Source: Mytilus edulis
Lineage: Eukaryota
Direction: 5' to 3'
DNA: 64,000 nt
Assembly: GCF_963676685.1 (NCBI RefSeq)
Contig: NC_092347.1
Span: forward strand, 70,642,935-70,706,934
A model generated the notes under the pieces. The model searched no databases. It was not told where the DNA came from and saw only the letters and a program-made list of their open reading frames with translations. The first letter of the stretch is position 1; each line of letters starts with the position of its first letter. Both the position numbers and the translations under genes were made by a program. This document shows positions 2,880-45,612 of this stretch, piece by piece.

Positions 2880-3200
2880 GTTGAATACCCAGACAACATG
2901 AGTATGTTGGCCCAACATTGGCACAACGTATATCATTGCATTGGCCCATCGTTGTATTTTAACGTTGGCCCAACGTATAAGTGCAAAGTGGGCCTACGTT
3001 GGCCCAACATGATGGCTTCATGTTGGCCCAACGTTGTACGGTTATATGCAATACATAGAGCCAACGTTGGCCCATTGTATGAAAAACGAAATCCATGTTG
3101 GCACAACGTTGGACCAACGTAGCGATATATTTTTTCTTATGTTGGCACTATGTTGGTCCAAGGTAGGTATTTCTCATTTTTGTGTTGGCAATACGTTGGT
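2880..3200. repeat. Degenerate array of the same GTTGGCCCAACGTTGG palindromic motif
   Basis: More than 12 variants of 'atgttggcccaacgttg' occur at irregular spacing of 20-40 bp. A single copy of 'caacgttgggccagcattggcccaacat' lies at 5120-5150. (TA)n of about 30 bp lies at 2830-2860. Confidence 0.6.
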
Positions 3201-5379
3201 ATATTGCTTCAACCAAATTGCAATGGATGCTGCATTAAGAGCTGTATATGATAAATACTCCGGAGCGCATTTGATCTTTTTTTGTATTCCAAACTGCCAA
3301 AGTTTAAGGTAGCAATTCTGTATTTTTGTATTACCCATTGTTGTTACTGTCCTTGTTTTTTTCATGAACTTTGCCTCTTTAATTTTATTTATTGTGTGAC
3401 GCTAAGATATTTCTTTGACAATGTTTGATGGATCGACCAGATAAACTCTGTGTTATTTGGTATCTTGTAAAGACTTGTCTCATTAGCAATCATACCACAT
3501 CTTCTTTTTTCATATAAATTTCATTTATTTCTTTAACAGAACAAATGACGTATGGCTTATGGTTAGGCGATCATACAAATAGTTTTTTCGGAGATGTAAT
3601 TTTAGTTGTATTGGTTCCAGATCCAGAATGAAAATTAAATAATTCAGAAGATGAAACTTTATTTATTTTAAATTTGATATCATTGGTCGTCACCACGAGT
3701 AGTGTCCTCCTCAATTTGAACTTCAACAGTGTCATTATTACTTATATATGTTATTCTTTTTTTCCCTTCTGTATTTCTTGCCACCTTCTCAGTCAAGGCT
3801 TAAGTGCCGCCAATCTTTAGCTGCATCATCTATCTCCTTATCCGAAGACTATTTACAGCTATGTTTTTTTTCTAACCGACTCTGTAATAAAGTTATAAGT
3901 AAACTTGAATTGCGTATTTGTCTAATGCATGCGTGCGTAATCTCCCTTCTAGATATGTAATATAAATTAATTTATATTCTAAATAGTTTAAACACTATTT
4001 AATACAAAATCAAATCTTAAATAACCAATTTTTTATATATTGGTTATTTGTCTAATTGTCAGAAATTCATTAGTATTAGACGGATTTGTGGGTATAACAA
4101 ACCCTTATTACTTTTATTTCAGAATTCGGTATCATACTTTATATATTCGTAATATACATGATATATAAAGAATAATTTAGATGTGTATTAATGAACAGTT
4201 ATATATTTGATATATAAAAACACTGTTACACATTCAAGTGTGTATATGATCAGGTTTCACAAATATATCGTATCTGTTTGCATGCGATTTAGAAATACAA
4301 TAAAACTAACAAATTCATTTATATTTTAATGAAGTAGAAATCATTATACCACATTTTTGAAACATTACGGAATAAGGTACATCTTAAGACAATTTTATTC
4401 CATTAACTTCAGTAATGATCATACATGTTGTGGTTATAGATTTATATAATTTACCATTTGTTTGAAGATACTAATGTTCAGTGGCAACTATTTCATGATA
4501 ATTAATAGGATTGAAATGATTTAAAATCTAGAAAATATTTCGCCCAAAACGTAGGAACTTTAAGATCAGCATTATAAAATGATAGAAATTAATATATGTT
4601 TTGATATTTAATAACATCCCTCAGATTAAAAAATCATATTGTATTTGTCATTCTGAATCGTATATATATCAGATTTTTTAAAGTTACAACTTACATGTTA
4701 CTATCTTTCTCTTTGAATCTCAGATGATATGATTTTCTCTTTTTGTTTTCTTCGTATCACTGCTTTCTTACAAATACACAACAGGAAATAATCACAAAAG
4801 TGACCATCCCATTACATTCAGATTTCCGATAAACTTGATTACCATAGCAACTATCTTTGAAATTTGTCGAACATATGGTCAACCTTATCAGAATGGGCTT
4901 GATTAACAGACTGGCTGTATCAAATATCACTCTGCATATAATTGCTATTATTATGTTTCACAAAGTTTAATGAATAAAGTTATTATAAATAATGATTGCA
5001 ATAAATTTTAATTTTTAACCAGGCAATCTATGTTTACGGTATTTTTTTTATTACAGTAATGATATTCCAGTATAAATTTTATCTGACTTATATATAGAGT
5101 ATAATATATGATCACGCAACGTTGGGCCAGCATTGGCCCAACATAGAGTTGTAAATGTAATTTCAGTTGATAAACACTGTCGGTATAACATTAACTTTTC
5201 ACTAAGCCTGCTGCAATCGAAATTATCCGCCTCCCAAGAGAAATAAAGCGTAAAATATTATATAATCAATTCTATTAACAAAATTTCATATCGGCCCTAT
5301 GTTGCTACTAACATAATGCCAACATTTGCCCGATTATTTATAACCAACATGAGATAATAATATGAATTTACAACAACAG

Positions 5380-5640
5380 ACCAACGTTTGGCCAATGTTG
5401 TGCAGCCGACACCAACGTGCGACCAATGTACCGACAATTTGCCAACGTTGGGCCAATGTTGTGTAGCCAACATAAACTTGCGACCAACGGACCGACAATT
5501 TGCCAACGTTGGGCCAATGTTGTGCAGCCAACATAAACTTGCGACCAACGGACCGACAATTTGCCAACGTTTGGCCAATGTTGTGAAGCCAACACCAACG
5601 GTCGACCAACGGGCCGACCATTTGCCAACGTTGGCCCACT
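5380..5640. repeat. 60-bp-period satellite array of about 4.5 units built on the palindromic core CCAACGTTGG(G)CCAA
   Basis: Head-to-tail units of 'caatttgccaacgttgggccaatgttgtgcagccaacataaacttgcgaccaacggaccga' at 5385, 5445, 5505 and 5565. A degenerate leader occupies 5290-5380. The overlapping ORFs 5297..5645 on both strands are artefacts of the periodicity. Confidence 0.8.
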
Positions 5641-5721
5641 GTTAGTCTGCTGACTGGGTATTAACTATTATTTTACATAAATCAATTTTCCCATATCAGT
5701 AACTTCTCAGTCTACAGATCT

Positions 5722-5815
5722 TAGCATGGGTTCGAATCCCGGCGAGGGAAGAACCAAAAATTTGCGAAAGCAAATTTACAGATCTAACATTGTTGGGTTG
5801 TTGTTTAGACGAGTT
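5722..5815 (+). mobile_element. Partial SINE copy (B-box to tail) in inverted orientation to the 5845-6000 copy
   Basis: This 94-bp stretch is the reverse complement of 5845-5938 with a single mismatch. The two copies are separated by a 29-bp AT-rich spacer. Confidence 0.6.
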
Positions 5816-5844
5816 GTTTATATATATTGTTTATATATAAATAT

Positions 5845-6000
5845 AACTCGTCTAAACATCAACCCAACAATGTTAGATCTGTAAATTTGCTTTCGCAAAT
5901 TTTTGGTTCTTCCCTCGCCGGGATTCGAACCCATGCTACTATGATATCGTGACACCAAATCGCCTGCACTGCAGCCGTCCCGCTAGACCACACGACCACC
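5845..6000 (-). mobile_element. tRNA-derived SINE, full-length copy with a tRNA-like head
   Basis: On the minus strand the sequence reads GGTGGTCGTGTGGTCTAGCGGGAC...CATGGGTTCGAATCCCGGCGAGGG. It has an A-box-like TGGTCTAGCGG, a perfect B-box GGTTCGAATCC, a tRNA-unrelated body, and a tail 'aatttgcgaaagcaaatttacagatctaacattgttggg'. Related copies lie at 5722-5815, about 6100-6150 and about 43763-43895. Confidence 0.6.
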
Positions 6001-8070
6001 TGTACAAGTAAGTCTGAACCAGTTACAACTCTATGTGGGATTGTATCTATGGGATCACCAGTGATGGTGATACAAGGCTGAAGTCACATTCTGTATATAA
6101 ATTCGTCTAAATATCAGCCCAACATGTTATAGATCTGAAAATTTGCGGAAGTATTTATATATATACACGGGTTCCACATTTCCTTAGGTATTCGGATCCC
6201 TTCCTCTGCATGGATATAGGAATAAGTAAATTATTTCGTACATTTTCGAAAATGTGCATTTTTTAAATTTCAAATTTAAAAAAACCCGCATCTAAACAAA
6301 TTGAGTTTAGGGGTCAGCTGAATAAAATTATTTCGTACATTTTGTACGTGAACGGATGCGGGATTTTCTTGCTGTGTGAACCTTTTCTTCCCTTTGTTCG
6401 GGTTGTTGTCTCTTTGAAACATTCCCCATTTGCATTCTCAATTGTATCTGGTTTCATTGAGAAAATCGTTACCGTTTAAAAATAGATATCATAAACATAA
6501 AGGCGAAATCAAAAATAAATTAGTCGCAGATGCATGTATAGAAACAACAACATGTTTAACAGGAAATAAACAACCTACCACAAAACACTATACAGGAAAG
6601 TAATGAAAATTAATTGTTAAAAGTCATTATTCATTTAAATTTAACAACATAGGTACATGAAAATTGGACTACCAAAAGCATAGGTACATGCAAATTGGAC
6701 TACCAAAAATTTAGCTCTCTGTCCTACGAGGAGTCTAGGATTGCATAAGAAAAAGCGTTTTACATGGTGACGTATAGTTTTAAATTATAGAAAAAATAAA
6801 TATAACCATTTAGTTAGTGAGCATGCCTTGAATCAGAGTCATATCTAGACATATAAGTTTTTGTTTCAAGGTGTAAATTCGGTTACCATCATAATGGTAT
6901 ACTACTCTTTGTACGTGCTTTCTGTAATCATGATACTAGTTTTATCATTTGTTTTGTTCGGTTTATGAATGTTAAATAGTATAATTGTATTGTATTTGTC
7001 ACTTTATCGGCTTTATGTCATGCTTTGACTAGGAAAAGAGATGACATGCTCAGATTTCAAATATATTTTTGTTATTTGACATTTTTTTCCTGGAAATATA
7101 ATTGTCTGTTCCGGGCTGTACTGCTGTTATACTATGTGAATATAATTCTTTTCGTATTGATCGAATCGGATGCAACAGTTGGACAAGTTTCTACTTTTAA
7201 AATTTGAATTTCACACGCAACTATTAGTTTGCCATATGTTGATGTTCGTCATAATTTTTCATATTAAATGTCGTCATAATTTTATACCATCACACATATA
7301 CATATATCATTTTCTTTTGAAATGCGACATTGACCATATATGGGTTGTTTACTCGTATTATATTCTGCTTCAATTTCGTATTTAATTTGTTTATTACTAG
7401 AATATACTACAGCATTTAAAAACATCGAGGGATGGAAGATAAGAGAAAAAGCACTCTACCCATGTCTGTTTATTAACTTCTGAAATATCATCTGGCGGTG
7501 ATTCGCGTATATTCCATCCGTATTTAATATATACCCAAAATACAAAACATGAAAATACCGACTTAATCCAGTCAAAATACGATAAACACAATAATCAAAA
7601 TATAATAGTGAGTTTTTTCGATAATGTTAATGATCAAGTAGATTTAGCAGTAAAAAAAACTATCTTTAAAAGTAAAAAAATAACACACTGTTTTGAGAAA
7701 TTAGTTCGAACTTCAGAATTATTCTGTGTCAGCCATCTCTCTAAATACCACTTTGGTCTATAACCCCTTTTTTCACCCCGTACAACTCATTATTTGCAAG
7801 TTGATGATAAAGATGTGGTGGTTCTGTTCAATGGGTCACGAGAAAAATGTGACATAAAGATTTGTTTCTGGACTGACAAGTTATTTACAATATAGCCCTA
7901 CCTTTAGAGAGGGTATATTATTTTGTTTCTTGTAAACACTGAGACAAAGCTTTATGTTCGATATGTATATTCGGTATTGGTTCCTTTTATTCTTTTGGGC
8001 GTTCAATTTTCGAACAAAATTTTATGTCAAAATCTGAGACAAAATTGTTCCTATACATGTAGAATGGTAA

Positions 8071-8857
8071 CGGACTTATCGGGTTTTTGTCGGCAGCGTT
8101 TCTGCACCAATCGGGTTCGGCAACGGACTTATCGCGTTTTGTTTCCAGACAGTCTGACACAAAATGAGCCAGATAGACGAAAAGAAGTCGTAAATGTTTA
8201 TGTTTATATGATCACGGAAGGCACCGATGATCTAATTTTGCAAAAATTTTCATTTTGCTTCGGTACCACTCATGGCTTTTTCAAAGAGCTCCACACTAAA
8301 CAGGACAACCGGCCGAACATAATTAGAATTTTGACTTAATGTGCTCCTTTATTTCATGCAAAATACATATTAGAACCACTTGTGTGCATTCAAAAACTAA
8401 AAATATCATATATCAAAGCTTTTTCAAAATTGCTTGACCGTGGACTAATCGGGTTTCCCAAAAATGACGTGTTTTTTTTGGCACCGAACTGTTGGGGTTT
8501 ATTGAGCACAGGACTTATTGTGTTTTTATTGTCTTACCAGGGTAAAAAGGAAAAAGATACCGTCCAGCCTATGGCTAAACAAACGGATGAACTTGTCACG
8601 GACAAGTGTCCAAGTTCGGGTACCAAGTTGGTGGAAACAATTTGAAATAAATCGTATCTTCCCATGAATATATGATTAGATATCCAACAAAATAAATAAT
8701 TTCCCCGTTCCGTGACATCAAGCTTATTTGAAAATGTCAATTCTGCTTTAATACAAGTTGAAAGAAATAACTTCTTACGCCAAATGTTGTCATTTGAAAA
8801 CGCGATAAGTCCGTTGCCGAACCCGATTAGTGCGGAAACGCCGAAACAGGATAAACC
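8071..8857. mobile_element. MITE-like or foldback element with inverted repeats of about 65 bp
   Basis: 8097-8150 'cgtttctgcaccaatcgggttcggcaacggacttatcgcgtttt' is the reverse complement of 8801-8844, 'aaaacgcgataagtccgttgccgaacccgattagtgcggaaacg', with 2 mismatches. Internal 'ggacttatcgggttt' sub-repeats occur at 8071, 8131 and 8445-8520. ORF 7923..8339 runs through it and is spurious. Confidence 0.5.
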
Positions 8858-10778: not shown

Positions 10779-10929
10779 ATGGGTGAAACAAAGCCCAAAA
10801 TTGTGATCATCGGTGGAGGGATCGCTGGGATAGCCTTAGGAGACCATCTCGCTAACAATGGATTCAAAGATTACGTTATACTTGAAGCATCAAATAGAAC
10901 AGGCGGTAGAATATACACCGTCAATCTTG
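10779..10929 (+). CDS. Polyamine/spermine oxidase-like flavin amine oxidase, coding exon 1
   Basis: First in-frame ATG, at 10779; the ORF track starts at a TTG at 10770, and there is an in-frame TGA at 10764-66. The exon encodes MGETKPKIVIIGGGIAGIALGDHLANNGFKDYVILEASNRTGGRIYTVNLG, a Rossmann dinucleotide-binding motif (GxGxxG) followed by the EAS..GGR motif typical of FAD amine oxidases. It ends at a consensus donor, G|GTAAGT, at 10930 in phase 1. Confidence 0.8.
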
Positions 10930-13990: not shown

Positions 13991-15642
13991 TCATCTCTTT
14001 TGTCGTAAAGTTTTGTTTTGAACCAACCCTCATTGTCAAATTCTAGATGAAAGCTAAGTCAAGATATGAGGCCGACTTTACTGTATCTGTAGTATCCTTT
14101 ATCTCTAGTTCAATGGGATAGATCGATGTGTTCAACATTCATGTAGTCACCAAATTTTAAAGTATTTAGTGAAAGAAACATCTATATAGCGGAAAGTAGA
14201 CCCGACCAAAAAGCAGACAACAGCCGAAAGCTGTAATGTATGCATTTGGATATTCACAAAGGGTTTAAGGTACATGCACATGAGATGTGGATGATACACA
14301 TTGTAGTATAATTGTAGGTGAAGACTAGACATTTTTTAGGTCAAGTTGAAGTATTTAAATATTTTTACATGTGCAACAGTAACATGGCATGCTTAAAGGT
14401 ACAAACATGAAAAAAATATACGTTTTAAATTCAATCTGAATGTTCACTGTTACTTGAAAAACAGTTTTCATTATACACTCTTTATAGTCTTGTAGCCAAG
14501 ATTTACTGTCTACATTTAGATATTTATTTTACAAACCACTTACATCAAGGCTGATGGTCGGACCTGTGGCTAAGTGAAGACTAATGTCAATAAAATTAAA
14601 TATTATTTGATGGTTTGAAATGCTCTTTGAAATTTCACCGTACTAGAACTCTAAGATTTGTGCCACATAAGTTTAAGTTTCATGTGGTATTTTTTTTGTA
14701 CATGGTAACCTATGTCTTATCATTGTTTTTGAACCTATTGAACCAGAAACAGACTAGTACAAGCTATGCATTGTACCATACACATGTCAGTTGCATACCA
14801 CAAGACATCATGATGAGATGTCACTACTTTGCACAATGCAGTATCTATTAGTACAATGGAAAATTGTACCTATCATTAAAAAAATGTGACCAACTCAATG
14901 TTACATGTATAAATAAGGAAATGCATGTGGTTTGATTGCCAATGTCTATCTGACAAGAGTCCAAATGAAATGAATATAAAAAGTTATAGGTCAACATAGC
15001 CTTGTAACAAAAATTAGTAAACCCATACTTTTATACATACATAGCTATAGTCGAATGTATAAAAAGGCCCCAACATGACAAAAAAGTCTGGTAGAAAAAT
15101 AAAACATTTTCTTAATTGTAACAAGCTTTAGAGCTGACTACCGGTACATGTATGTGGTAAAGGGTATGCACAGGGTATGTACTTGTATTCTATACAAAAT
15201 CTTCTTTGGTAACTAAAATTGCATGTCACTGCTTTAGATAAAATCCTGTTGTCATGTTCATAAACATGCATGTTTTTTTTTGCACACAAGTTTTTGAAAG
15301 TGACCATTCTTGTTAAACTCAGTTTATTTACTCATTGTATTATTGTACATGTATACTTACATAGTGTATATCGATTAAGTCTCCTTTTTATTAAACTAGC
15401 TGTTACTTATTGTACATTTTTGTAAAAACCTCTCATCTGGTTGAATGATTATTATGACTATTTTCACACACTTTCTAAAAATGGCACATTAAAAACTGAA
15501 CTTATAAAGTTTAAAACCTAAATATAAATCCTGTACGTGTACATGTATATTAAAGCCAAGAAACTGGGACCCACTACAAGTAGAAATGATTTTGAAGAAA
15601 TTAAGAATATAATAAATATTTTTTTTAAATGATATTTTTCAG

Positions 15643-16557
15643 ATGCCGAAGGCCATAAAGCAGAAATGGGGGCCAATTGGATACATGGCATAGAAAGAAA
15701 CCCAATTTTTAAAATTGCTGATGACAATAATTTGCTAGAATTGAGACATGGCAATAAAGGTCTTCGTAATAAAACATCCTTTATAATGGAAAATGGAGAG
15801 GAAGTAACTGAAAAAATAGTCAATCAAGTAAATTTGAACTATGGGCAACTAATTATGCAAGCAGAGGATTTTTATCAAAATGGTATGCCCACAATGGAAG
15901 AAAATGATAGTGTTGGGGCATTTCTGGAACGTGAATATGAAGACACTTTGGAACGATATACAAATGGTGACCGTCATATTAGAGAATTGTTGTTTGATCA
16001 GCGAAAAAGGCTAGAGTGTTGTATATCTGGCTGTGATTCATTGTCAGAGGTTTCTTTGAGTGAGTTTGGAAGTTACGAAGAACTACCAGGTGTTCATTAT
16101 ACAATCCCACCCGGTTTTACTGCAGTTTTAGAAATCCTAAAAAGTAGTATCCCAAAGGAAAATATTTTACTCAATCATCCAGTCAAATGTATACGATGGA
16201 ATAGACAATTTCCTGATCCAGAAAAAAATGTTTATGAATGTTGTGTTGAATGTGAAAACGGTGAAAAATTCTATGCAAATCACGTAATATGTACTGTTTC
16301 ACTAGGTGTTTTAAAAGCTGCATGTGATAGGATGTTTAACCCACCATTGCCTAAAATGAAATTAGATGCAATAGATGCAGTTGGATTTGGCATTGTAGAC
16401 AAAGTTATTATTCAGTTTGATGAACCAGTGACAGAGCCAGAATTGTTCCGTGTAGAACTTGTGTGGGACAATGATCTCATTGAAATGAATGATCTGCGAC
16501 ACACGTGGTATCGTAAAATATACTCCTTTGAAGTGGTACATGACAATGTTTTAGTTG
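15643..16557 (+). CDS. Polyamine/spermine oxidase-like, coding exon 2 (about 305 codons)
   Basis: Acceptor tttttcag| immediately upstream. Splicing from exon 1 in phase 1 gives ...VNLG|DAEGHKAEMGANWIHG..., and GANWIHG is the conserved substrate-binding motif of SMOX/PAOX. The long open frame in AT-rich DNA (ORF 15666..16574) includes VICTVSLGVLK, which matches the SMOX/PAOX 'VTVSLGVLK' motif. The exon ends at donor G|GTGAGT at 16558 in phase 1. The start coordinate is uncertain by about 1 bp. Confidence 0.85.
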
Positions 16558-17524
16558 GTGAGTATAATTGTTAAAGTGGCATTGGTGCTATCTGGACTGT
16601 CTTTTTTTGCTTAGATTGTATCAACGATTGAGTAATGAAATTTTTGAAGTTTACAGGGTTCTCACTATACATGTATAGTACATAGAGTCCAAGTGCCATG
16701 GACAAATCTTTTTCAAAACTGGTTAAAAAATATCAATATGTAAGTATCACTGTTGTTGCTTCATCAGTTCATAATATATACATGATATTATATATATATA
16801 TGTATAAAATACACTTTTGGAATTATTAGATGTATCAATGAGGGCTGTACATGTTATCCCGATTGGCTGTATCTAATATAATTTACACCAAGATATTAAG
16901 GTTGATACAAAAGTTTGATTTTTGATACTTTAGGAGAAGGATCTTGCAGCAAATTTATGATGAAAGCAAGATAAATGCAGGATATCCAATACATGTAATA
17001 TAACAACACCTCGGTTAAAAATTACATTTTTGTACTTGCATACTTTATTGTAGTACTACATTTTGTACATGTAATGAAGTCTTAATGAACATGAACATAC
17101 AATGTATATAGACAATGTAAAATTAGGAGGCCAACATCAGTTTGTTTTGACCAGTTATATTAACTTTTCGTGTTCATCCACATGCATACATGTATCTGAG
17201 AAAGAGAAATGTATTGAACGCTTTTTCTTTGTGGAGAGCTTTGTGTAAATATTTCTTTTTCAGATAATATTTATTAAGTTCTATTATTATCATGATTATT
17301 ATTTATTTGTTACCATGGTACATTTGTTACAGAACAAAATCAATAGTTACCAGGTGCTACAAATGTATTTGTACATGTACATAGTATATATGAATACATT
17401 TACATGTAGGTATACACAAAAAAAACTTGTGATTCTACCCACCTAGCTTGAACATGTTGAAGAATTCTGGGCCCTCAAGTGACCTATACATAGCTATTTT
17501 AAAGAGATACAAATGTAAGTTGGT

Positions 17525-17665
17525 GATCAGGGGAATATATATAGAATAACCATACATTGTCTCGAAATATCAATGTTATTTGTACAAGGCTTAGAAACAG
17601 GTAGAAAGCGAGGCTGTGAGTCGAGTACAAATAACAGATTGATATTTCGAGACAATGTATGGTTA
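17525..17665. repeat. Isolated inverted repeat with 33-bp near-perfect arms and a 70-bp loop
   Basis: 17527-17561 'tagaataaccatacattgtctcgaaatatcaat' is the reverse complement of 17637-17671 'attgatatttcgagacaatgtatggttattcttta'. Confidence 0.6.
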
Positions 17666-19950
17666 TTCTTTATATACTGCAACTCTTATAACTGTTCAAA
17701 ATGAAGTATTTAGGGTAAAAAAACGTCATTCTTTAATTGTGAGCGGACAACGTAAAATTGCCGCGAACCTGTATGTTTTATTGACGTCATAAATAAAACT
17801 CTTTGGAAACACATTGTCAACGTCATAAACAAGGTGATATAAATGTAGTCAGTGACTGTATATCACATATGAATATATACGGTCAATGCAATTTGACTGC
17901 TCAAATAGCACAGCTGCAGTATATAACAACTTACAATATCATGATATACATTTGTGTTACAACCAACCCAACTAGCCCTATTTTTTGTAGATAATTAACA
18001 CGCATTTATTAAGGGTAAACTGTTCAAAGCAGTATAAAGAAAAAAAGGCAAAAAAAAAAAACCCCAATGCCTGTTTTTCTTCTTGTTCTTAACTTTGAAA
18101 ATATATATATGTGATCCTATTTTGAAGAGAAAAGTTTGTTTCCGAAGTTAGTAATATGATGAGAAAATGATCTGATCAGCTTTTTCTATGTAAATGTACA
18201 TGTACATGTACAGCACTAAATGATGTACATGTATGTGTTTTTCTGTTACATGTTACTTTTGCAAGTGTACATTATGGTAGATCTAGCATGCCAGTACTGT
18301 TCTTCACCCTTGTATTGAATTTAGAATGATTTATTACTGTCCAGGTTCAACTGGTACTTTAATATATACAATGTATCATGTATATATTCGTTTCATTCAT
18401 TGTATACATCCATCAATAATTACAAAGGACAAGCCCATCTCGGCCAGGTCTCTGACAATTTCAAAGCTAGCTTTCAAATTATATATAAAAGAGAGAAATA
18501 AAAAGGAAAGGTTGATTGCAGAAAATATGTAAAGCAATGACTCAACAGATTATGTTGATCCTCTCAGACAGCATGCAGTGAAAACGATTAACTTTTAAGG
18601 TGAAGGGATGGTTAGAAATGTAAAGTAATATATATATACATGTGGAAAGAAAACATATTTGTCTCTGAGGACAGTAACCTGTGATTTGTCCTTGTTTGAC
18701 ATCATGAAAACTGTGCAGTGTAGTATCGATAAAACTTATATATATACTCTCACTCAGTAAGTTAATCTACCTTCAATGTGAATGTTTCTCTTACAGTAGC
18801 TGAAGTCTTAAATCTTAGCTTATCCATATTTTGTGAAATTGATATTGTTGAAGTATTATGAATTGATTGTTTGAGAATCTTAAATTTGCATTTTTACTTT
18901 ACAATTGTGTGTGTGTGCATAGATCATTACATGTATAAATGACTTTTCAATTTTAAGGGCATCCCCAGTCTGTAGAATTACAAAAGGTAAAGAGTTCATT
19001 GGCCGGTCAGTTTTCAGTCAATAGGTTAATTCATGTCTTCTGTATCGATTATAATGAAGATTCAGTGTAGCATTTGCCTTCTTTCAATTGCAGCGGTCAA
19101 TAAACTTTTTGCACTATCCTAACCTTGGGTGATGTTGATCATTTTGTGAAGAGCAAGTTGTTTTCTGTCTTGCCCAAATGCAGTTAATGATTTTTCTATT
19201 CCCAATTTACAACAAGTATTTTTCCACTTAGTACGATTTTTTAATTAACTTCATCTTGAGACACTGAAGAGAGTTTTGGAAGCTAAGTTTGATTGTAGCT
19301 ATAAGCATGGCCACATACATCTTATTACAATTTATGTTATAAATCTAATATACTGTACTGGTCATGGTTTATGTCGTTTGTAAATTTGACTTCTTTTTCC
19401 TAATAATTCTTTTGTCATTTCTAATGTCATGTGAATGTGTTTGATTTGAATTGAAATTTTCAATTTTGAATGGCTGAATGTTTACAACTTTTGTTGTGTC
19501 AAAAGAACTATGTATGCATGTTTCATTTCACGGTCGTGATGTCACTCCAGTCATACATGTACCTTGAAAACAAAATTTATGCATTTGACATCCAACATTG
19601 TTACATCTAGTTCATGGCAAATTTGCCAGCAGATCTAGATATATATATGATATTGGGATTGCTGTTGTGTATCTCTTGTCTGTTATGAAAATCTATACCT
19701 ATGTGCATCTACAAGTTCTGCTTAGGCAAAAGAAGGTGTGAATTAATAAACATTACACAACTAGTACATGTATTCAGCAATTAAAAAAAAAAAATTTTTT
19801 ATGACCCTGCTGCTGCGAAGGGGGCATTAAGTGTAACCCTTGGCCTTGTCCATATGTCTCAATATTATTTTCTGTTCTCTAAGTAACTTTAGATATCAAT
19901 ACTTGTGTATGATATTTATTCTATTGATTGTAAGGTGTATATATAAAAAA

Positions 19951-20230: not shown

Positions 20231-21589
20231 GTCTTGAAATTGACCTCATTTTCAACGTTCTTCAATGGTTAATGTACATGTTAAGTTTTTTGTATGGGAG
20301 TCTGTTTCTCAGGTACATTTACTATAACTAACTATAAGCAATATGGTCACCATAATCATAATACAGACTAAAAAATTCCATACAGTGACAGTCTTATTGT
20401 CCGGCAACACATATTGTTTTCAAATATGCTAACTAACATCTGGCAGGTGATCATGGTGATGGGAGACAGATTTGAAAGTACACATGCACTTACACTTATA
20501 CTTAATAGATGCATTCATCTGCTTTTAATTAAATACAAAGTATATATTTAATGGTTTTAAAACAAGTTTTATTTTCAGCAGTTGTTCACCAGTACATGCA
20601 TGTTTCTGTTTGATCTTGTGCATGTACATTTTGTAAATTATCATCTTCCTCAGACATCATGGTAAACTGTAAATATACATTTGGGTACACCATCACTACA
20701 TGCAGTACATGTTCAAATTTATATCTTATCTTTTTGCTATTTAAAAAGTATGTTTTGTGCTTTTTGGTTTTATTTGAAGAAATGCATGTTTATGAATAAC
20801 TACAATCATGACAATGTATAAATAAAAGGAGATAATGAGCAAGGTTATGCAGCAGTCATATTTGCCTAACATGTTTTATTTTGTTAAAAAATCACTGATT
20901 GATAAATATTCCAAACTAAAACATCCAGGATATATCGATAATGCTTCCAAGCTTAGGTTTGATTTTGTGGTCATATTTTTTCATGCAGCAAGCGTTAATA
21001 ATCTCCTTTTAATTATTAAATCACTGGTAGCAGTATAATACATCATACATGTATATAATAATAAAACATGTACATGTAGGTTCATTTAAAATTTAAATGC
21101 AAGGTTATTTAAGGTAACATGTACATTTAAAAACACTCTTGTATGAGTGATTCGTTGTGTAACTAACAGAGTGATGGCTGGGGATTCAAGGTTATAACAC
21201 TTACAATGTATATGACCCTGTGTTTAAGATTAGGCATACATCAGTCTAATACTTTAGCAATATATGCATAATGCAGAGCAATATTACAGAGTTAATCACC
21301 TACAATCACTAAAAATTCTCTCCATGGAGTGATATATGTAACTGAATTAACTTTTGTGTATATATAATACATATATGTACATGTATACAGGTACAAAATG
21401 TAGTATTAAAAAAAAGCCTACCACGTGCACTCATTTCACAAAAAGTCTTATAAAGAAAAATGGTTGTAAGTCAGTATAACTTATGACCTGGCCTGTTCAA
21501 ATTTAAATTTTTGAGGCCATCTCAGACATCAATTAATCTGTTATCTCTTTATATTTATACATGTTTCAGGAACTGATATATTTTTTTAG

Positions 21590-21719
21590 GATGGTTAAGT
21601 GGTAAAGAAGCACTGTATATGGAGTCATTGACGGAAGAGCAGATAGGACAAGACATTGTGGAGGCTCTGAAAAAATTCCTTAGTAAAAAAGACATTCCAC
21701 AGCCAAGAAAAGTCATCAG
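21590..21719 (+). CDS. Polyamine/spermine oxidase-like, coding exon 3
   Basis: Acceptor tttttttag|. The exon encodes (G)WLSGKEALYMESLTEEQIGQDIVEALKKFLSKKDIPQPRKVI(R), collinear with the vertebrate SMOX/PAOX segment '...GW(I/L)xGxEAxxMExLxDEEV...P.P(K/R)xxLRS'. It joins exon 2 as NVLVG|WLSG and ends at donor ag|GTACAT in phase 2. Confidence 0.8.
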
Positions 21720-24700
21720 GTACATGTAGCAATATGTTTCAAACAATTATTTATGTTAACTTGCACTTTACAAACATTTACATGATCCTATATTACTGTG
21801 ACCCCTGTTTTTTTTTAATCATGCATATTATATGTTTATTCAAGTTATTGATTGAAGCACTGATTGACATGTCATTTGATTGACAGACAAATACTCCCTC
21901 AACCAGAGATTGTATTGACTATACATTATCATAAGGATGGTCATAATTTTTGATTTCTTTAATTTAAGTGGCGGAACATGTACAGGTTGTGGGTTCCAGA
22001 GGTTGGATTTTTTTTGGCGATCAATTTTGAATGGTGACACATGGTTTGAACCCCCCTCCCTTATGCTGGGTTGAGAACCCCCTTATGAAAATGGTTGTAT
22101 CCACCCCTGAGTTTTGACATCATCTACATGATCTAGACTTGTTGTAATCTTTCATAATTGGGCCGACTTGGCACCTAGATAGAAACTTTTTAGTCATTTC
22201 CCATTGGTTCTTCTATTTATGTATTTCAGGTATACTTATAAATGGTATGATTGCAAATGAGACAACTCTCAGCTACCATAGACTTAGTTAACAACAAAAT
22301 GCCGCCATATGTCCTTCATAACAATGAATAAAACCAATACCGCATAGTCAGCTCTTAAAGGCCCCAAATTTGTATATTCGATATCAATTTTAAATTCTTC
22401 AATCCCTCCCTTTATCTGTCACTAGGGTTGTACGTGACGTGGAACATATACTTTTATTCATGGTTAAAAGGTGAGATAATACAGTGTGTTGGGTTTTTCT
22501 ACCTATCTTTTTTTATCACTCTTTTCCCACACCCCCTTCAATGAATTTTAGTAACATTGAATAACCTGTAACAAGTGTTAAACCTGTAGACAGGTAAAAA
22601 TACTCAGACTTTTGATGTTGTAATGAGATATTTAACAGTTACAAAAGGTATTTCCTGTACAAGCCTTAAAAATCAGCCGATCAGTAGACAAGCTTGAATG
22701 AGATTCATATCCCTGAATCAAGTTTCTCAAATATTCACATATTTAAGATTTTACTCAGGTCTTAGTATTGATTGTTGAAATATATGTGTAAAGATTTTTT
22801 TTCATTTTCAATTGCAAAAAATAAAGATTAGATGACACAAGATTAAACAAGTGAATCACTAGGAACTGATGATTATTGGGTAATTGATTTGTGATTCATG
22901 TATATTTTAATCAGATCAGGTTTTAGAATTTGTATGATTCATCTTTTCTTCAAGTGTTGATGAGAGAATGTATATACCCAAAAGCATTATGTATGTCCTT
23001 AGACAAGCATACATGGTTGTGTTTAAATGTTTTACAGATATATAGTCAAAGTTTAATTAAAATATAAACTGTGGACTTGTTTGCCTTAGTGAATGATAAA
23101 TACATGTAAATACCTTTACAAAGAAGTATTATAATATAAATAAGATATTAAGTATATTTGATAGAGTGCATATGAAACCGCACATTATTAAAATTCTGTC
23201 GGTTTGTCAAAGTCATCGTAATGCACTCGTTTCGCTCAATGACTTAAAGCACTCAGTTTAAAACAATTTACATCTTACTTCAATAGGGAAAATCTAAAAA
23301 CAAAACAACAATAAACAATAAACAATAAACAAACAAAGCAAGTAAAGTAAGACTATGAAATGAACCAAAATGTGTCATTTAAAAATAAAAGTTTGTCAAT
23401 TGGACAAATGTCTCTAAATCTATATTTTTCCATAATTAGTCCATAATAATTGGAAATGAATAATAAGATTTGATTATAATATTTTTGTCATAGGAAAGTT
23501 ACTTAATACAGCCAAGAAATAAAAATTTAGGTGCATATTCTTTTTCATTTCTATTTGTATGAATATTGTAACTTTTTGATAATATATGAAATAGAAGATA
23601 CATATATATATATTTCTCTAATTCTTCGTCAATTTATCCCTTTCTGCACCCGTTGTATAATAATTTTTAATCACCTTGTGGTTTGTTTGTTCTCAGTTCT
23701 TCATTGGTTAAAATACGATTATGATGTTTTATTTTTTTGCTTTCTTCTGAATTTCCTATTGTGATGGCATGAAAAAAGGCGACCGCCAAGCCTCGCGTTT
23801 TAAATTTGAAAATTTAACCGTCTCGAGTGGATAAATATCGTATCACACTCGATGACGTGGTAGAATCTACATATATTTAGATCTAACTCTGTCTCAATAT
23901 ACATCAGTTTTGTTTAATCTTAATGATTGAAAACGTAATACATTTATGTCATTATAAGCTTCATTTGGCTTTCAATGATCAATAATCCATCATTTTAAAT
24001 GCATTATAAGCTGTCAAATTCATTACCACCTAATTGACTTAAACTGTAAGCTTGAATAGTTAAGATAAATTATAATATATTACAGCAAAAAAAAAGACTT
24101 ATAAGCCAGGGCCAGGACAAACAGTGCAATACCCTCTTGGGTAGTCAAGGTTGTTAAACCTTCGTGTTAAACACACATGTAGTAATGGTATTCCCAAACC
24201 AGTAAGACCTTACTATACATTAATTTGCCTTTTCTAAATTAGAAAACTCTATGGTGGTTATCTTTGTTAATATCTAAATGTCTGAACCTGGAGCAATTCA
24301 TATGGACTAACATTATATGTCTGGACCTAAAGCATTTAAAATCTGACCCATCTGGACTAATGTTATCCACTTGTCTATTGTTGAATATTGTATAATGACC
24401 TTTTGAATTAGATGTCTTATTGCATGGTCATTTAGGCATACTTTACATACATCTCAGTTCATACATATTTAATCGTAGATATTTCATACATTTAACTTCT
24501 CTGGGAGCATATTTCTATGTATAAAGGCAATCTAGATAAGAGACAGAAGACTTGTTATGTCTCGTAGTTCGTGACAACTAATGTTACATTTACATTTTGT
24601 AAGTGGCTTCTAATGTCCCCATCTTAAGAACTGGGGAAGGCCTTCTAGACATTTGCCAATTGCAGCTTGAAGCACACATATAAATTTGTATAATCTGGGT

Positions 24701-27477: not shown

Positions 27478-28063
27478 CAAAGGAGTAGGTTCAGTAAGAC
27501 CCCTTTTTGGCCCCAAAATATAGCAGTTTTACAAAATTGTAAAAATGTAAACCTTTAGTTATTTATTGGACAGTAGAATGCTTCTGCTACATACATATGG
27601 GCTGTTTTTGACAATACAATGCACATATATCCGGTACTAGCACCATTAAGTCATGCTAAATTACTGAAATCCTCATAATTCTAGCATTTTAGTTAAATTT
27701 TAGACGGTTTTCGTGTAAAACGAAAGTGGCCACATTCGTGTTCATCCTTAATATTGTAATGTAAGTTGTATTTTATGATAACACATAACATATATAAAGG
27801 TTGAGGATGAACACGGATGCGGCCACTTTCATTTTTACCAAAAACCATCTGAAAAGTGACATTTTTCGGCATATTAGGTAGATTTTTCATATTTGAGCTT
27901 GAATCGGATCGTTTTTAATGACTAAATCTGTGAAAATCTTTTACATAAACTAATTAATTCAAATAAAATAGACACTTAAGTGTTTAAAAAGTGGTCAAAA
28001 TCTTTCGTCGGATGAACCTGAAATTTGAGGCCAAAATCGGTCCTTACTGGACCTACTCCTTTG
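27478..28063. mobile_element. MITE-like element with about 25-bp TIRs and an internal 30-bp-arm hairpin
   Basis: 27478-27501 'caaaggagtaggttcagtaagacc' is the reverse complement of 28039-28063 'ggtccttactggacctactcctttg'. The internal inverted repeat at 27730-27760 'aaacgaaagtggccacattcgtgttcatcct' pairs with 27808-27840 'aggatgaacacggatgcggccactttcatttt'. Confidence 0.5.
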
Positions 28064-32649: not shown

Positions 32650-33375
32650 TGTGATTTAGGCCACTTCACCTATGTCTGTCAGTCCCATTAACATATAGGC
32701 CACTTCACCTATGTATGTCAGTCCCATTGACATATAGGCCACTTCACCTATGTCTGTCAGTCCCATTGACATATAGGCCACTTCACCTATGTCTATCAGT
32801 CCCATTGCCATATAGGCCACTTCACCTATGTTTATCAGTCCCATTGACATAGGCCACTTCACCTATGTCTATCTGTCCCATTGACCTATAGGCCACTTCA
32901 CCTATGTCTGTCAGTCCCATTGACCTATAGGCCACTTCACCTATGTCTGTCAGTCCCATTGACCTATAGGCCACTTCACCTATGTCTATCAGTTCCATTG
33001 ACCTATAGGCCACTTCACCTATGTCTGTCAGTCCCATTGACCTATAGGCCACTTCACCTATGTCTATCAGTCCCATTGACCTATAGGCCACTTCACCTAT
33101 GTCTGTCAGTCCCATTGACCTATAGGCCACTTCACATATGTCTATCAATCCCATTGACATATAGGCCACTTCACCTATGTCTGTCAGTCCCATTGACCTA
33201 TAGGCCACTTCACAAGTCTGTCAGTCCCATTGACATATAGGCCACTTCACCTATGTCTATCAGTCCCATTGACATATAGGCCACTTCACCTATGTCTGTC
33301 AGTCCTATTGACATATAGGCCACTTCACCTATGTCTATCAGTCCCATTGACCTATAGGCCACTTCACCTATGTCT
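32650..33375. repeat. 39-bp-period minisatellite of about 18.5 units
   Basis: The unit gccacttcacctatgtctgtcagtcccattgac(a/c)tatag is repeated head-to-tail with sporadic substitutions (ctgtc/ctatc, gacat/gacct). Because the period is a multiple of 3, ORFs 32656..33240 are open on both strands and are artefacts. Confidence 0.85.
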
Positions 33376-36300
33376 ATCATTTGTCACTTGTTAAAGTGTC
33401 AATTTCAATAGCACACACTAATTATATTTTTTTTTAAATGCTGTATAGACTATTTGCTACCTCTAGTTGTCGAGGCTTCGACTTTAGTCGAAAAAGCGAG
33501 ACTAAGCGAGACTACATTCAGTCGTCGGTGTCGTTGGCGGCGTCCACAAATATTCACTCTGTGGTTAAAGTTTTTAAAATTTTAATAACTTTCTTAAACT
33601 ATCCTGGGTTTGTACCAAACTTGGACAGAAGCTTAATTATGATCATAAAATAGTATCCAGAAGTAAATTTTGTAAAAAAAATAATTCATTTTTTCAGTAT
33701 TTTACTTTTAAATGGACTTATATTTTCTTCCAGTTAACCATACATACATGTACAGTCTGCAGTTGTTTTTAAAACATTTATTAGATTCATAAACTATCCT
33801 GGATTTTAACCAAACTTGGACAGAACATTACAATCAAAAGATTGTATCAAGGGGAATATTTGATTGAGTTTCTTCCTCATTTTTGTTGAGCCTTTGATTT
33901 ACAGCAAAAGTAGGCGAGACACTGGGTTCCGCGGAACCCTTACAATTTTTTTTTGATATTTTGACTTAAAGATGTTCAGGGTTTGATCAATTAGGTATGA
34001 CATTGTTCTTTATTTCTACACCTATGGTCTAAAAGTGTTTTGCTTAGGTATGATAAACAAGAAGACAGATGTGTAGAATGTTACAGTCTGACACCTGTAC
34101 CCTGTTAGGTTCTATGATATATGTAGTACATTTCTTTAAACTGACATATTACGGTCAGGACTTCTGTTTCTGAGGTGTGAGTTAATGAGTTTTGGGTCAA
34201 TTTGTATCTATATATGGTGTAAAAATTTATATATAACAATTTACTAAAGGAGGCTTACAACATGTACAACATATGTCTCAATTGATCAACAGTAAAACCT
34301 GTTACAAGAGCCTGCAAATCTTGTGCCAAGGCCACAATTAAAAATATTTTGGTTTGCACCCTACCCAAGGTTGAGACAATGGGTAGGTAGGTAGGCATTT
34401 TCTTTTTTTTTCTTTTTTTTAAAGAAATTGAAGTATCAGATGTTTATTAGTCTTCATGCCTATCTGATTAAAAAAAAACATCTTCAAATCAGGACAATAA
34501 AGAATTTGAGTAGGCAGCTTTTTTCTGGGTAGGTAGGGTTTGGGCAAACAAACCTATTCTTTTTTATGGCCCAATCAGTTCAAATTGTTTGAGGGCCAAT
34601 AGGCAACACAAACAAAAGTTTTGATGATTTTCACTTAGTCAATGCATAATTCATTATTCCTTCATTCCTCTATATAACTTTCATCCATCTCCTTTAAATA
34701 TTGAATTTGGTGGAAAATTTTGACAAACTAAAGTGTTATATTCATAGCTGATGGTTTAATGGTGTAAAATTGATGCTAATAATATGTTTTGGTCAGAACA
34801 GGCTTCTGAAAACCAATCCTTGATATAGTGCATTAGTGGGTAGAAAAGTTATCTTCAGGAAATTCTGACTTAATCATGTGCTTGAAAACCTGTTGTAAAA
34901 AGAAGTAAAAATTAAGACCCTGACTTCCTTTTCAATTACACTTTTGTTTTGGTCAGACACTGGATTCTTTTGTATATACATGTAGCTAGCATATTCCCCT
35001 TCTTGACCTTGAAGATAAACAAATATGTTTCAGGCTGTACATAGTTTTATTTGCCAATGTCAACAAATATCCACTTACATTTTATGAAAAGAAATCTATG
35101 TATTTTGAAATTGATTTCTCTTTTGAAACTAAACAATAACAATGATTAGACATATACTATTCACACAGTGTGAAATATATATATTTATTAAAACACTTGA
35201 CCTCGATCTAATAATAAAGATTATGCGAAACCAATACCAGTGCCAATCAATAATATCAAAATTGTATCTGACACAACATGTGATGTTAAAAGTTAGAATA
35301 TACATATTTGAAAGTAAAATTTCATTTCTATTACTTCATAATATATTGGATAATGAAGTTATGACCTAGTTTTTTTGACTTGTTGATGATGTGTTGTGAA
35401 ATATGAAGATTTAAATGTTTGTCATGACGTCAACAGTCCCAGTTACCAGACAAACAATTCTGCGTACATGTAATGGGGTGGGCTAAGTACATTTCTAAGT
35501 ATTAAATCAAGTTTATGTTTATTTGTCCTTGCTCAAACTTCCTCATGCTTGTTCTTTTATTTAAAACTTTAAAATCTTAATTAAATTATGACATATAAAT
35601 TACGTTCAAAAGGAAATATTCATCTGTTAGCAGGATGCTATGTGATCATCGATTTTTACTCCTACACTGGATTAGTAACAGTGAAAACGTTCATTACTAT
35701 AACAAAGATTGCACCACATTTTTGTGGCATCTGTTAAGGTGTGGGGTTAATGTTTGTGTCTCTTACGAATTTAAATATTCCTTTGTCCTAGTATTTTTAA
35801 ATCAGAGCGTTTCATAAATTTATGATTCAATTTTATCATTGTTGCTTGGTTCAAATCAGTCCTTGGAAACACACTTGAGTTCTGTAATTATTAGTAACCA
35901 GAATCAGGCATGACTTAATTGAAATGCAACAGGAAAACAAGGAAATTGTGGATTACTTGGAAAAAGACATAAAAATATACCTGTATAGGAAATCAGATAA
36001 TTTTGGTTCATTGATTTTTGTTTTTCTTTATTTTAAAATATGTAGTATGTTTAAGTTAGAGGAAGACATGCTTTTGATGGTCATGTTTTGAACAGGAAGA
36101 GACCGACTGAATAAACAGGATAAACCTGTATAAACAATTCTCCCTTCCCTTTGTCAGCATAGTAAAGCTCAAGAGTACATGAATTGTTTATTAGTTTCAA
36201 GTTAATGTGTTGTAGCTTTTCCTAGAATTTGAATTTTCCACAAAAATGGTGGTATTGATTATGGATAAAACTTATGAATCTAATTATATAATATATTGAC

Positions 36301-43000: not shown

Positions 43001-43084
43001 AGGAGCATAGATTAGATCTTTAGCATGACAGTAGAACAGATGTATTTTTTTTTATTTGTATATATTCTTACCTTTCTTTTTCAG

Positions 43085-43202
43085 GACCAGATGGGGAAAT
43101 AACCCTTACACCAGAGGATCATATAGTTTCCTGAAAGTAGGAGCTCAGGCCGTAGACGTAGATGCTCTGTCAGAACCCTTAATGGGATCAGAATCTGATA
43201 AG
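43085..43202 (+). CDS. Polyamine/spermine oxidase-like, coding exon 4
   Basis: Acceptor ctttctttttcag|. The exon encodes (R)TRWGNNPYTRGSYSFLKVGAQAVDVDALSEPLMGSESDK and contains the highly conserved 'W..NPY.RGSYSY' motif of SMOX/PAOX. It ends at donor AAG|GTGAGA in phase 0. Confidence 0.8.
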
Positions 43203-43762: not shown

Positions 43763-43895
43763 AAAGAAGAGAAACAATGTTAGATCTGCAATTTTGCATC
43801 AGCAAAGTTTTGTTTTGTCCTCATTGGAACCCTTGCTGTTGTGACATCTTGGCAGCACAGTCTAGGACTGTCTCGTGCCCTAGACCACTTGACTA
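43763..43895 (-). mobile_element. Diverged member of the same SINE family as 5845-6000
   Basis: The minus-strand reading has AGTGGTCTAGGGCAC (A-box-like) ...GGGTTCCAATGAGG... and a tail 'ttgctgatgcaaaattgcagatctaacattgtt', which matches the tail of the 5845-6000 copy. It lies inside intron 4 of the amine oxidase gene. Confidence 0.4.

Positions 43896-45469: not shown

Positions 45470-45612
<143 letters not shown>

Follow-up and report, generated by a model that had tools for sequence, protein, structure and literature searches.

The locus examined here raises the question of how a 217-bp, near-perfect palindrome came to lie between two Mytilus genes, and whether it serves any purpose there, for example as the source of a hairpin RNA. 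It was found in a 64-kb stretch of Mytilus edulis DNA, which was analysed as a whole and is referred to below as the window; all positions are given in its coordinates. When pairs of arms lying within 3 kb of each other were compared across the window, the palindrome was the longest and most perfect inverted repeat present. The answer reached is that it represents a young, lineage-specific pair of SINEs, placed tail-to-tail in intergenic DNA, and that retrotransposition most likely left it behind as a by-product without a dedicated function.

The inverted-repeat structure is real and far beyond what chance would produce. On realignment, the arm at 5722-5815 matched the reverse complement of 5845-5938 at 93 of 94 positions, in full agreement with the original prediction, and the single mismatch set a T at 5801 against an A (SINE sense) at 5859. 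The spacer (5816-5844, no strand assigned) had been described as 29 bp of AT only; its length was correct, but this TA-rich segment contains two G residues and is partly self-paired. It consists of two abutting SINE tails in which GTTTATATATA occurs twice, at 5816-5826 and 5829-5839, and because it is partly self-complementary the effective loop is reduced to about 5 nt (5828-5832). With the pairing part of the spacer included, a repeat search delimited arms of 106 nt (5722-5827 and 5833-5938) that were 96% identical, with 5 nt between them. The very stable hairpin or cruciform that had been expected was borne out by folding, as 5700-5960 reached -183.2 kcal/mol when folded as RNA (z = -28; 0 of 200 shuffled sequences were as good), and 5715-5945 folded as DNA reached -123.2 kcal/mol (z = -31). 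Inverted repeats are more prone to breakage when their arms are longer and more identical and their spacers shorter (PMC7999016), and by such general rules the earlier remark that the locus could form a cruciform and act as a fragile site is a reasonable one. Many other short inverted repeats occur in the window, such as 8096-8140 / 8797-8841, 17536-17574 / 17638-17676, and 27698-27751 / 27801-27854; they have arms of 39-54 nt with 81-97% identity, and resemble MITE termini or small foldback elements.

The two halves of the palindrome are unequal copies of one element. The right arm (5845-5938) is the 3' 94 nt of a full-length SINE copy of 158 bp, which lies on the minus strand and runs from 6002 to 5845, beginning CAGGTGGTCGTG and continuing through a head, which includes the B box, and a short body to a 3' end in ...GACGAGTT. 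The left arm is itself a SINE copy, on the plus strand (5722-5815) and with the same ending ...GACGAGTT, but its sequence starts only 7 nt ahead of the B box, so that it is 5'-truncated and has no A box. A Pol III B box had been assigned to the minus-strand copy, and an exact motif, GGTTCGAATCC, is indeed found there (5921-5931, minus strand); it is not exclusive to that copy, since its mirror is present in the left arm as well (5729-5739, plus strand). An A-box-like motif, TGGTCTAGCGG, is carried by the right, full-length copy only (5980-5990, minus strand), and showed two mismatches when scored by eye against the consensus TRGCNNAGTGG. At the level of motifs, then, the full-length copy has a predicted internal Pol III promoter of the kind expected of a SINE. 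Its head was not recognisable as tRNA-derived: ARAGORN found no tRNA in the 64-kb window, and Rfam searches of 5000-7000 and 5900-6010 at E<=10 returned no tRNA match. The label 'tRNA-derived' therefore depends on its box motifs and on a resemblance to tRNA-Glu. The body of the element contains, a short way upstream of the tail, a perfect 8-bp stem with a loop of GAAA, AAATTTGC-GAAA-GCAAATTT (5758-5777, mirrored at 5883-5902), which may be a structure for recognition or stalling of the reverse transcriptase. Seven open reading frames of at least 120 aa occur in the window, none of them recognisably LINE-like, and five of the seven were without a Pfam match.

Copies of the element elsewhere were found by scanning metagenome contigs with a 24-nt pattern from its body, which returned four marine contigs. 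One of these, L004, carried a full copy that was 99.4% identical over 158 nt to the full-length SINE of the window, while the full copy in L002 was 93% identical and a copy in L003, cut by the end of the contig, was 97.7% identical. L004 and L001 each also contained a 49-nt fragment of the SINE tail. All of the external copies had different flanks, and all ended in GACGAGTT followed by a (TA)n-like tail. In the window itself, an old and diverged copy of this SINE, or of a related one, is present on the minus strand at 43773-43895 (73% identity over 92 nt, with an A-box-like and B-box-like head); it sits in an intron of the spermine-oxidase-like gene described below, between the exons 43077-43202 and 45497-45610. 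In this small sample (L002, L003, L004 and 43773-43895), the copies are dispersed, have unrelated flanks, and share fixed ends, as SINE copies should. The family alignment agreed with the original view of two copies of a single family in tail-to-tail orientation, one of them now seen to be full-length and the other 5'-truncated. The locus did not behave as a MITE or foldback element, since neither its junctions nor the palindrome were repeated in the window or in the fetched loci (again a small sample), and no target-site duplication was present. Exact-pattern scans of viral and genome contig collections with two SINE patterns gave no match, a full-text literature search for strings of the SINE sequence gave no relevant paper, and a protein search with the SINE reading frame gave no candidates.

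Two further features of the external copies were observed. The tail-only fragments in L001 and L004 begin in the 3' half of the 8-bp GAAA stem, as does, approximately, the older one in the window. In L004 (968-1165) and L002 (2302-2463), the SINE head is preceded by about 200 bp of common sequence that is missing from the window copy. Over the whole 375-bp stretch these two contigs are 83% identical, their SINE parts being 93-99% identical to the window copy, and L004 has a tail-like fragment and about 85 bp more, further upstream of the pre-head sequence. This arrangement suggests either a longer composite element or a preferred context for insertion.

The palindrome is located in an intergenic space of about 9 kb that separates two divergent genes. 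On the plus strand, the exons of a spermine-oxidase-like gene were placed at 10779-10928, 15642-16559, 21580-21720, 43077-43202 and 45497-45610; they include a 302-aa open exon (15666-16571), and a protein of M. galloprovincialis falls in its 90% cluster. When the mRNA of a Mytilus paralogue with 91% identity was mapped, its 5'UTR was contiguous with exon 1 and began at about 10536. On the minus strand, the first exon of the neighbouring gene lies in the open reading frame 906-1607, which is 100% identical to a M. edulis protein and has its coding start near 1500. The two protein matches mark the window as edulis-like Mytilus DNA. The palindrome is therefore about 4.6 kb from the paralogue-mapped start of the spermine-oxidase-like 5'UTR, and the coding start of the neighbour is about 4.1 kb away from it. 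Five Mytilus species have an annotated SMOX gene, of which the spermine-oxidase-like gene is a paralogue with 91% identity, and the product of the neighbouring gene is an uncharacterised, low-complexity protein without a Pfam match, found only in Mytilus (77-100% identity). A large intron of the spermine-oxidase-like gene contains a tandem array of a 39-bp unit (32657-33379; 18.6 copies, 93% identity), which creates a spurious open reading frame of 128 aa. When L005, a contig from an independent read set (Logan SRR15505944), was compared with window 15293-16715, the 302-aa exon was identical and the DNA was 97.1% identical with indels, a divergence that would fit either the high heterozygosity of mussels or a sibling taxon.

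Through the proteins of these flanking genes, the orthologous loci of M. galloprovincialis (L008, UYJE01003352.1) and M. trossulus (L014, CM071705.1) were reached, and both matched the window collinearly to the left and to the right of the SINE block. A further locus, L009, ended about 3 kb short of the site. A left anchor (5668-5712, ending ...CAGTC) and a right anchor (from 6003, starting TACAAGTAAGTC) were found in both species at 89-95% identity, and the block between them, 5722-6002, was missing from both. The anchors are separated by 137 bp in M. galloprovincialis and by 176 bp in M. trossulus; these segments are homologous to one another (87%), and that of M. trossulus has (CA)n(TA)n at its end beside the right anchor. 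With M. trossulus taken as the outgroup, from the known relationships of Mytilus, the segment common to both orthologues is ancestral, and the SINE block, missing from two sister species, is derived and lineage-specific. The original proposal that the palindrome is recent was thus supported by the two species that do not carry it.

The junctions of the block give an indication of how it arrived. The right breakpoint is the exact 5' end of the full-length SINE, with orthology resuming at 6003. At the left junction there is a 9-nt filler, TACAGATCT (5713-5721, plus strand), which is not in the orthologues and is the same as the SINE-internal sequence 5777-5785; about 0.5% of the 9-mers of the window occur in the palindrome, which gives the chance rate for such a match. 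The filler has the look of a templated insert at a repaired junction. Among all flanks and the spacer there was no direct repeat of at least 6 nt, and so no target-site duplication; the orthologues show instead a target-site deletion, and with the arrival of the block some 140-175 bp of target DNA were lost. The sequence TACAG (5713-5717) was considered as the remnant of a duplication of TACAAG (6003-6008), but the 9/9 match to SINE-internal sequence was preferred because the orthologues show a deletion.

Older repeats border the block on its right side. The full-length SINE adjoins the end of a repeat unit (6003-6146, minus strand) made up of a SINE-tail-like fragment (6100-6146), a TA stretch, and about 95 bp at 6003-6099. 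This fragment corresponds to a third, degenerate tail copy mentioned in the original prediction; it does exist (85% identity over 48 nt), but it is old, is common to M. trossulus, and has no relation to the recent event. The unit is 78% identical to positions 1156-1296 of L004 and occurs also in L001. It is present at the orthologous M. trossulus site, and about 40 bp of its tail part are deleted in M. galloprovincialis. A continuation of the unit past the far side of the block was tried and rejected, as the alignment was not significant, with 20% and 10% of shuffles scoring at least as high. To the left of the SINE block, window 2888-5667 is a block of about 2.8 kb rich in CCAACGTTGG-type palindromic motifs, ending in 4.3 copies of a 61-bp tandem repeat (5381-5643). 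The M. galloprovincialis locus has only a short poly-T stretch in its place (L008 3060-3074), and the 2.8-kb block is probably a separate large insertion/deletion polymorphism beside the SINE block.

The near-identity of the arms had been taken to mean that inverted duplication or gene conversion, and not two independent insertions, produced them. This argument did not survive comparison with the family, for which five external sequences were available, three covering the whole arm and two being tail fragments. Over 94 nt, the right arm showed no difference from the L004 copy or from the base carried by most of the five external sequences, and the left arm was one base off the family majority, its T at 5801 being private and every other copy having A. 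Independent copies of the family differ by 0.6-7%, and the alignment revealed no variant that was common to both arms and absent from the other copies. The arms are therefore no more alike than independent members of the family, and their near-identity is no argument for a local duplication. A close match of both arms to the family (0 differences for the right, 1 for the left) is also the outcome that the original prediction had itself named as pointing to two young insertions.

The reading preferred here, held with rather better than even confidence, is that the pair arose by two insertions, the second SINE being primed in the (TA)n tail of the first. The first step would have been the insertion of the full-length copy, on the minus strand, into TA-rich or (TA)n DNA, with its (TA)n tail pointing left. 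A nick in this tail would have exposed a 3' end to which the (UA)n tail of another SINE RNA paired in the inverse sense, which is possible because (TA)n is self-complementary. Reverse transcription would then have generated the plus-strand copy, halting just before the B box, and the far end of this copy would have been joined to DNA about 140-175 bp further left, a joining that would have deleted the ancestral segment and left the 9-nt filler copied from the SINE. Reverse transcription of a sense SINE RNA gives antisense DNA, and in the block both antisense strands lead outward from the central TA tract, so that the primer for one copy must have been the 3' end of its partner's (TA)n tail. 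Twin priming, or simultaneous priming from both ends of a break, was set aside because, under the target-primed reverse transcription model, either would give a head-to-head and not a tail-to-tail geometry. The order of events, the tail priming and the absence of function are what we infer, and the last of these is the default position.

The strongest competitor is a snap-back event, which we judge to be clearly the less probable of the two but still a serious possibility. Under this explanation only the full-length copy was inserted; after a break in or beside its TA tail, the resected (TA)n 3' end would have folded back and primed about 100 nt of synthesis on its own strand, and the product would have been sealed to DNA about 140-175 bp away by microhomology or polymerase-theta-type joining, with the templated 9-nt filler left behind. 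Short inverted repeats beside breaks are documented drivers of such palindromic duplications (PMC7999016). Several traits are typical of break repair, namely that the ancestral segment is deleted, that no target-site duplication is present and that the 9-nt insert is templated; the pairing of the arms runs on from their 93/94 matches into the spacer as far as the 5-nt loop, and no single-copy intermediate was seen. The identity of the arms, however, carries no weight, since they are no closer to each other than are unrelated copies (99.4% to L004), and the sequences beside them mildly favour a second insertion. Identity drops from 93/94 in the element to 9/12 in the tail exactly at the 3' end of the SINE, so that three of the four mismatches of the 106-nt arms fall in the 12 nt of tail (binomial p = 0.005). 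The left tail opens with G, the base found at this position in four of the five external sequences, and not with the A of the right tail, its supposed template; L002 has A here, like the right tail. The left arm also carries the private substitution at 5801.

The preferred reading of two insertions has its own difficulties. It needs two events, and no allele with the full-length copy only was seen among the loci compared. The usual hallmark of target-primed insertion, a target-site duplication, is missing, and a target deletion must be invoked. As TA tracts mutate rapidly, the differences between the tails could also postdate a snap-back duplication.

A functional hairpin RNA is very unlikely. 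This explanation supposes that dsRNA, made by Pol II read-through or by Pol III transcription to a T5 run in the left arm, gives rise to endo-siRNA-like, miRNA-like or piRNA products acting on SINE-containing transcripts. A long, near-perfect inverted repeat such as an hpRNA locus requires is present, the hairpin is very stable, and Dicer processing of palindromic SINEs has been raised as a possibility (PMC11481361). Set against this are the intergenic position, some 4 kb or more from either gene start, the composition of the arms, which are SINE sequence only with no gene-derived target, and the lack of conservation, as the block is missing from both M. galloprovincialis and M. trossulus. Nothing in the sequence suggests that Pol II transcription passes through 5722-5938. 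The host clade is also unpromising. In trochozoans, including bivalves, Dicer-2 and the siRNA-class Argonautes have been lost, and oyster libraries were without an endo-siRNA signature (PMC11114477); a survey of 32 mollusc species found no dedicated endo-siRNA pathway in spite of abundant inverted repeats (PMC12479628); and very long miRNA hairpins are apparently missing from molluscs, in which dsRNA is answered by apoptosis (PMC12553114). Taken together, the intergenic site, the SINE-only arms, the non-conservation and the mollusc surveys make the original proposal of an endo-siRNA or hpRNA precursor unlikely. Nor does the palindrome qualify as a miRNA precursor, as the Rfam families MIR8007, MIR8562 and MIR4240 scored 93.9, 84.4 and 76.2 bits, far below their gathering thresholds of 195, 211 and 200. 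These and the other sub-threshold miRNA matches were rejected as generic long-hairpin matches, because they fell on both strands and to unrelated long hairpins of plants and animals.

A Pol III product is conceivable on structural grounds. The 158 nt of the full-length SINE contain no T run of four or more, and the first such run on the minus strand, 242 nt from 6002, is a T5 at 5756-5760 that is the complement of the A5 of the SINE and is a predicted Pol III stop. A Pol III transcript initiated in the full copy would be predicted to cross the spacer and stop at this T5, spanning only about 60 nt of the second arm and yielding the head followed by a hairpin of about 60 bp. Folding of 6002->5755 gave such a head and stem of about 60 bp, at -131.6 kcal/mol (z = -19). 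Since the first terminator lies inside the inverted arm, and the A-box-like motif and B box are kept, a self-terminating hairpin transcript of about 245 nt is structurally plausible. The layout is like that of the tRNA-like/pre-miRNA units of murine gammaherpesvirus 68 and of Pol III shRNA cassettes, in which a head with an internal promoter is followed by a hairpin and a T-run stop; their stem is about 22 bp, unlike the 60 bp or so of the mussel stem, and the likeness is a structural analogy to a predicted transcript. By extension, any tail-to-tail pair of this SINE family might constitute a self-contained Pol III unit, in which the T5 of the partner provides the stop and the product is a U-ended head and hairpin of about 60 bp, a 'tRNA-shRNA', although we regard this as a highly speculative model with little chance of being correct. 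If it were true, the hairpin transcripts could feed the single Dicer and a miRNA-type Argonaute, seed piRNA, or trigger dsRNA sensing, and recurrent inverted SINE pairs would gain a regulatory or immune-stimulatory role. Expression and processing of such a hairpin would then bear on how molluscs handle endogenous long dsRNA.

Also very unlikely is an assembly artefact, a chimeric fold-back read built into the assembly. It would accommodate the fact that neither of the other two species has the block, and the failure of exact look-ups of palindrome-spanning open reading frames to find an independent assembly of the locus. Such artefacts are usually perfect and extend to the ends of reads, whereas this palindrome is a short internal feature whose flanks are unique and collinear to left and right. 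Its arms differ at one base, its tails differ as well, and its right copy runs on into a complete SINE head whose end coincides exactly with the breakpoint of orthology.

The locus is another instance of known inverted or palindromic SINE arrangements. Palindromic and tandem-like SINEs have been described in bivalve genomes and credited to alternating insertion orientations (Martelossi et al. 2024, Mob DNA, PMC11481361), with 403 palindromic structures in the genome of the blood clam, and the same authors noted that hairpin RNA might be formed from them (PMC11481361). The mussel pair, with two adjacent copies of the same family in opposite orientation, is palindromic in the same sense. Their survey dealt with HCD SINEs (having a highly conserved central domain) and with hits of at least 150 bp in five species including M. 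californianus; unlike that set, the pair described here belongs to a short SINE with a head and tail and no recognised conserved central domain, has one arm of 94 bp, and is intergenic, not intronic.

In its junctions, the block is similar to L1 insertions with target-site deletion, being 5'-truncated and without a target-site duplication, with about 140-175 bp lost and templated nucleotides at the 5' junction. LINE-mediated insertions that combine target-site deletion with 5' truncation are familiar from the L1 literature; unlike these, the mussel insertion would have been primed inside the (TA)n tail of another SINE copy. Inverted-repeat Alu pairs of primates provide the classic parallel, as they too are close and highly identical inverted SINEs that can form hairpins or cruciforms, and dsRNA when transcribed. 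Alu arms are about 300 bp long and usually 10-20% diverged, and the fate of their RNA in mammals is ADAR editing and nuclear retention; the mussel arms, unlike these, are 94-106 nt long and 99% identical, with a spacer of 5-29 nt. Short spacers and high identity are what make Alu pairs break-prone (PMC7999016). The hpRNA loci of Drosophila and the hairpin siRNA loci of mouse oocytes share with the palindrome a long, near-perfect inverted repeat and the potential to form dsRNA, but those loci are transcribed, are processed by Dicer-2/AGO2 or by an oocyte isoform of Dicer into phased reads of about 21 nt, and usually have gene targets. The mussel palindrome is without gene-derived sequence, and its host belongs to a clade without the pathway (PMC11114477, PMC12479628).

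By itself the locus matters little, as it only adds a further inverted SINE pair to a bivalve genome rich in repeats. What modest value it has is that of a clean and dated example, in which the ancestral state is visible at two outgroup loci. It illustrates how SINEs with self-complementary (TA)n tails may nest in either orientation, or trigger snap-back synthesis, and so produce long palindromes together with deletion of the target. Sites at which such palindromes form may be structurally polymorphic and prone to breakage in Mytilus.
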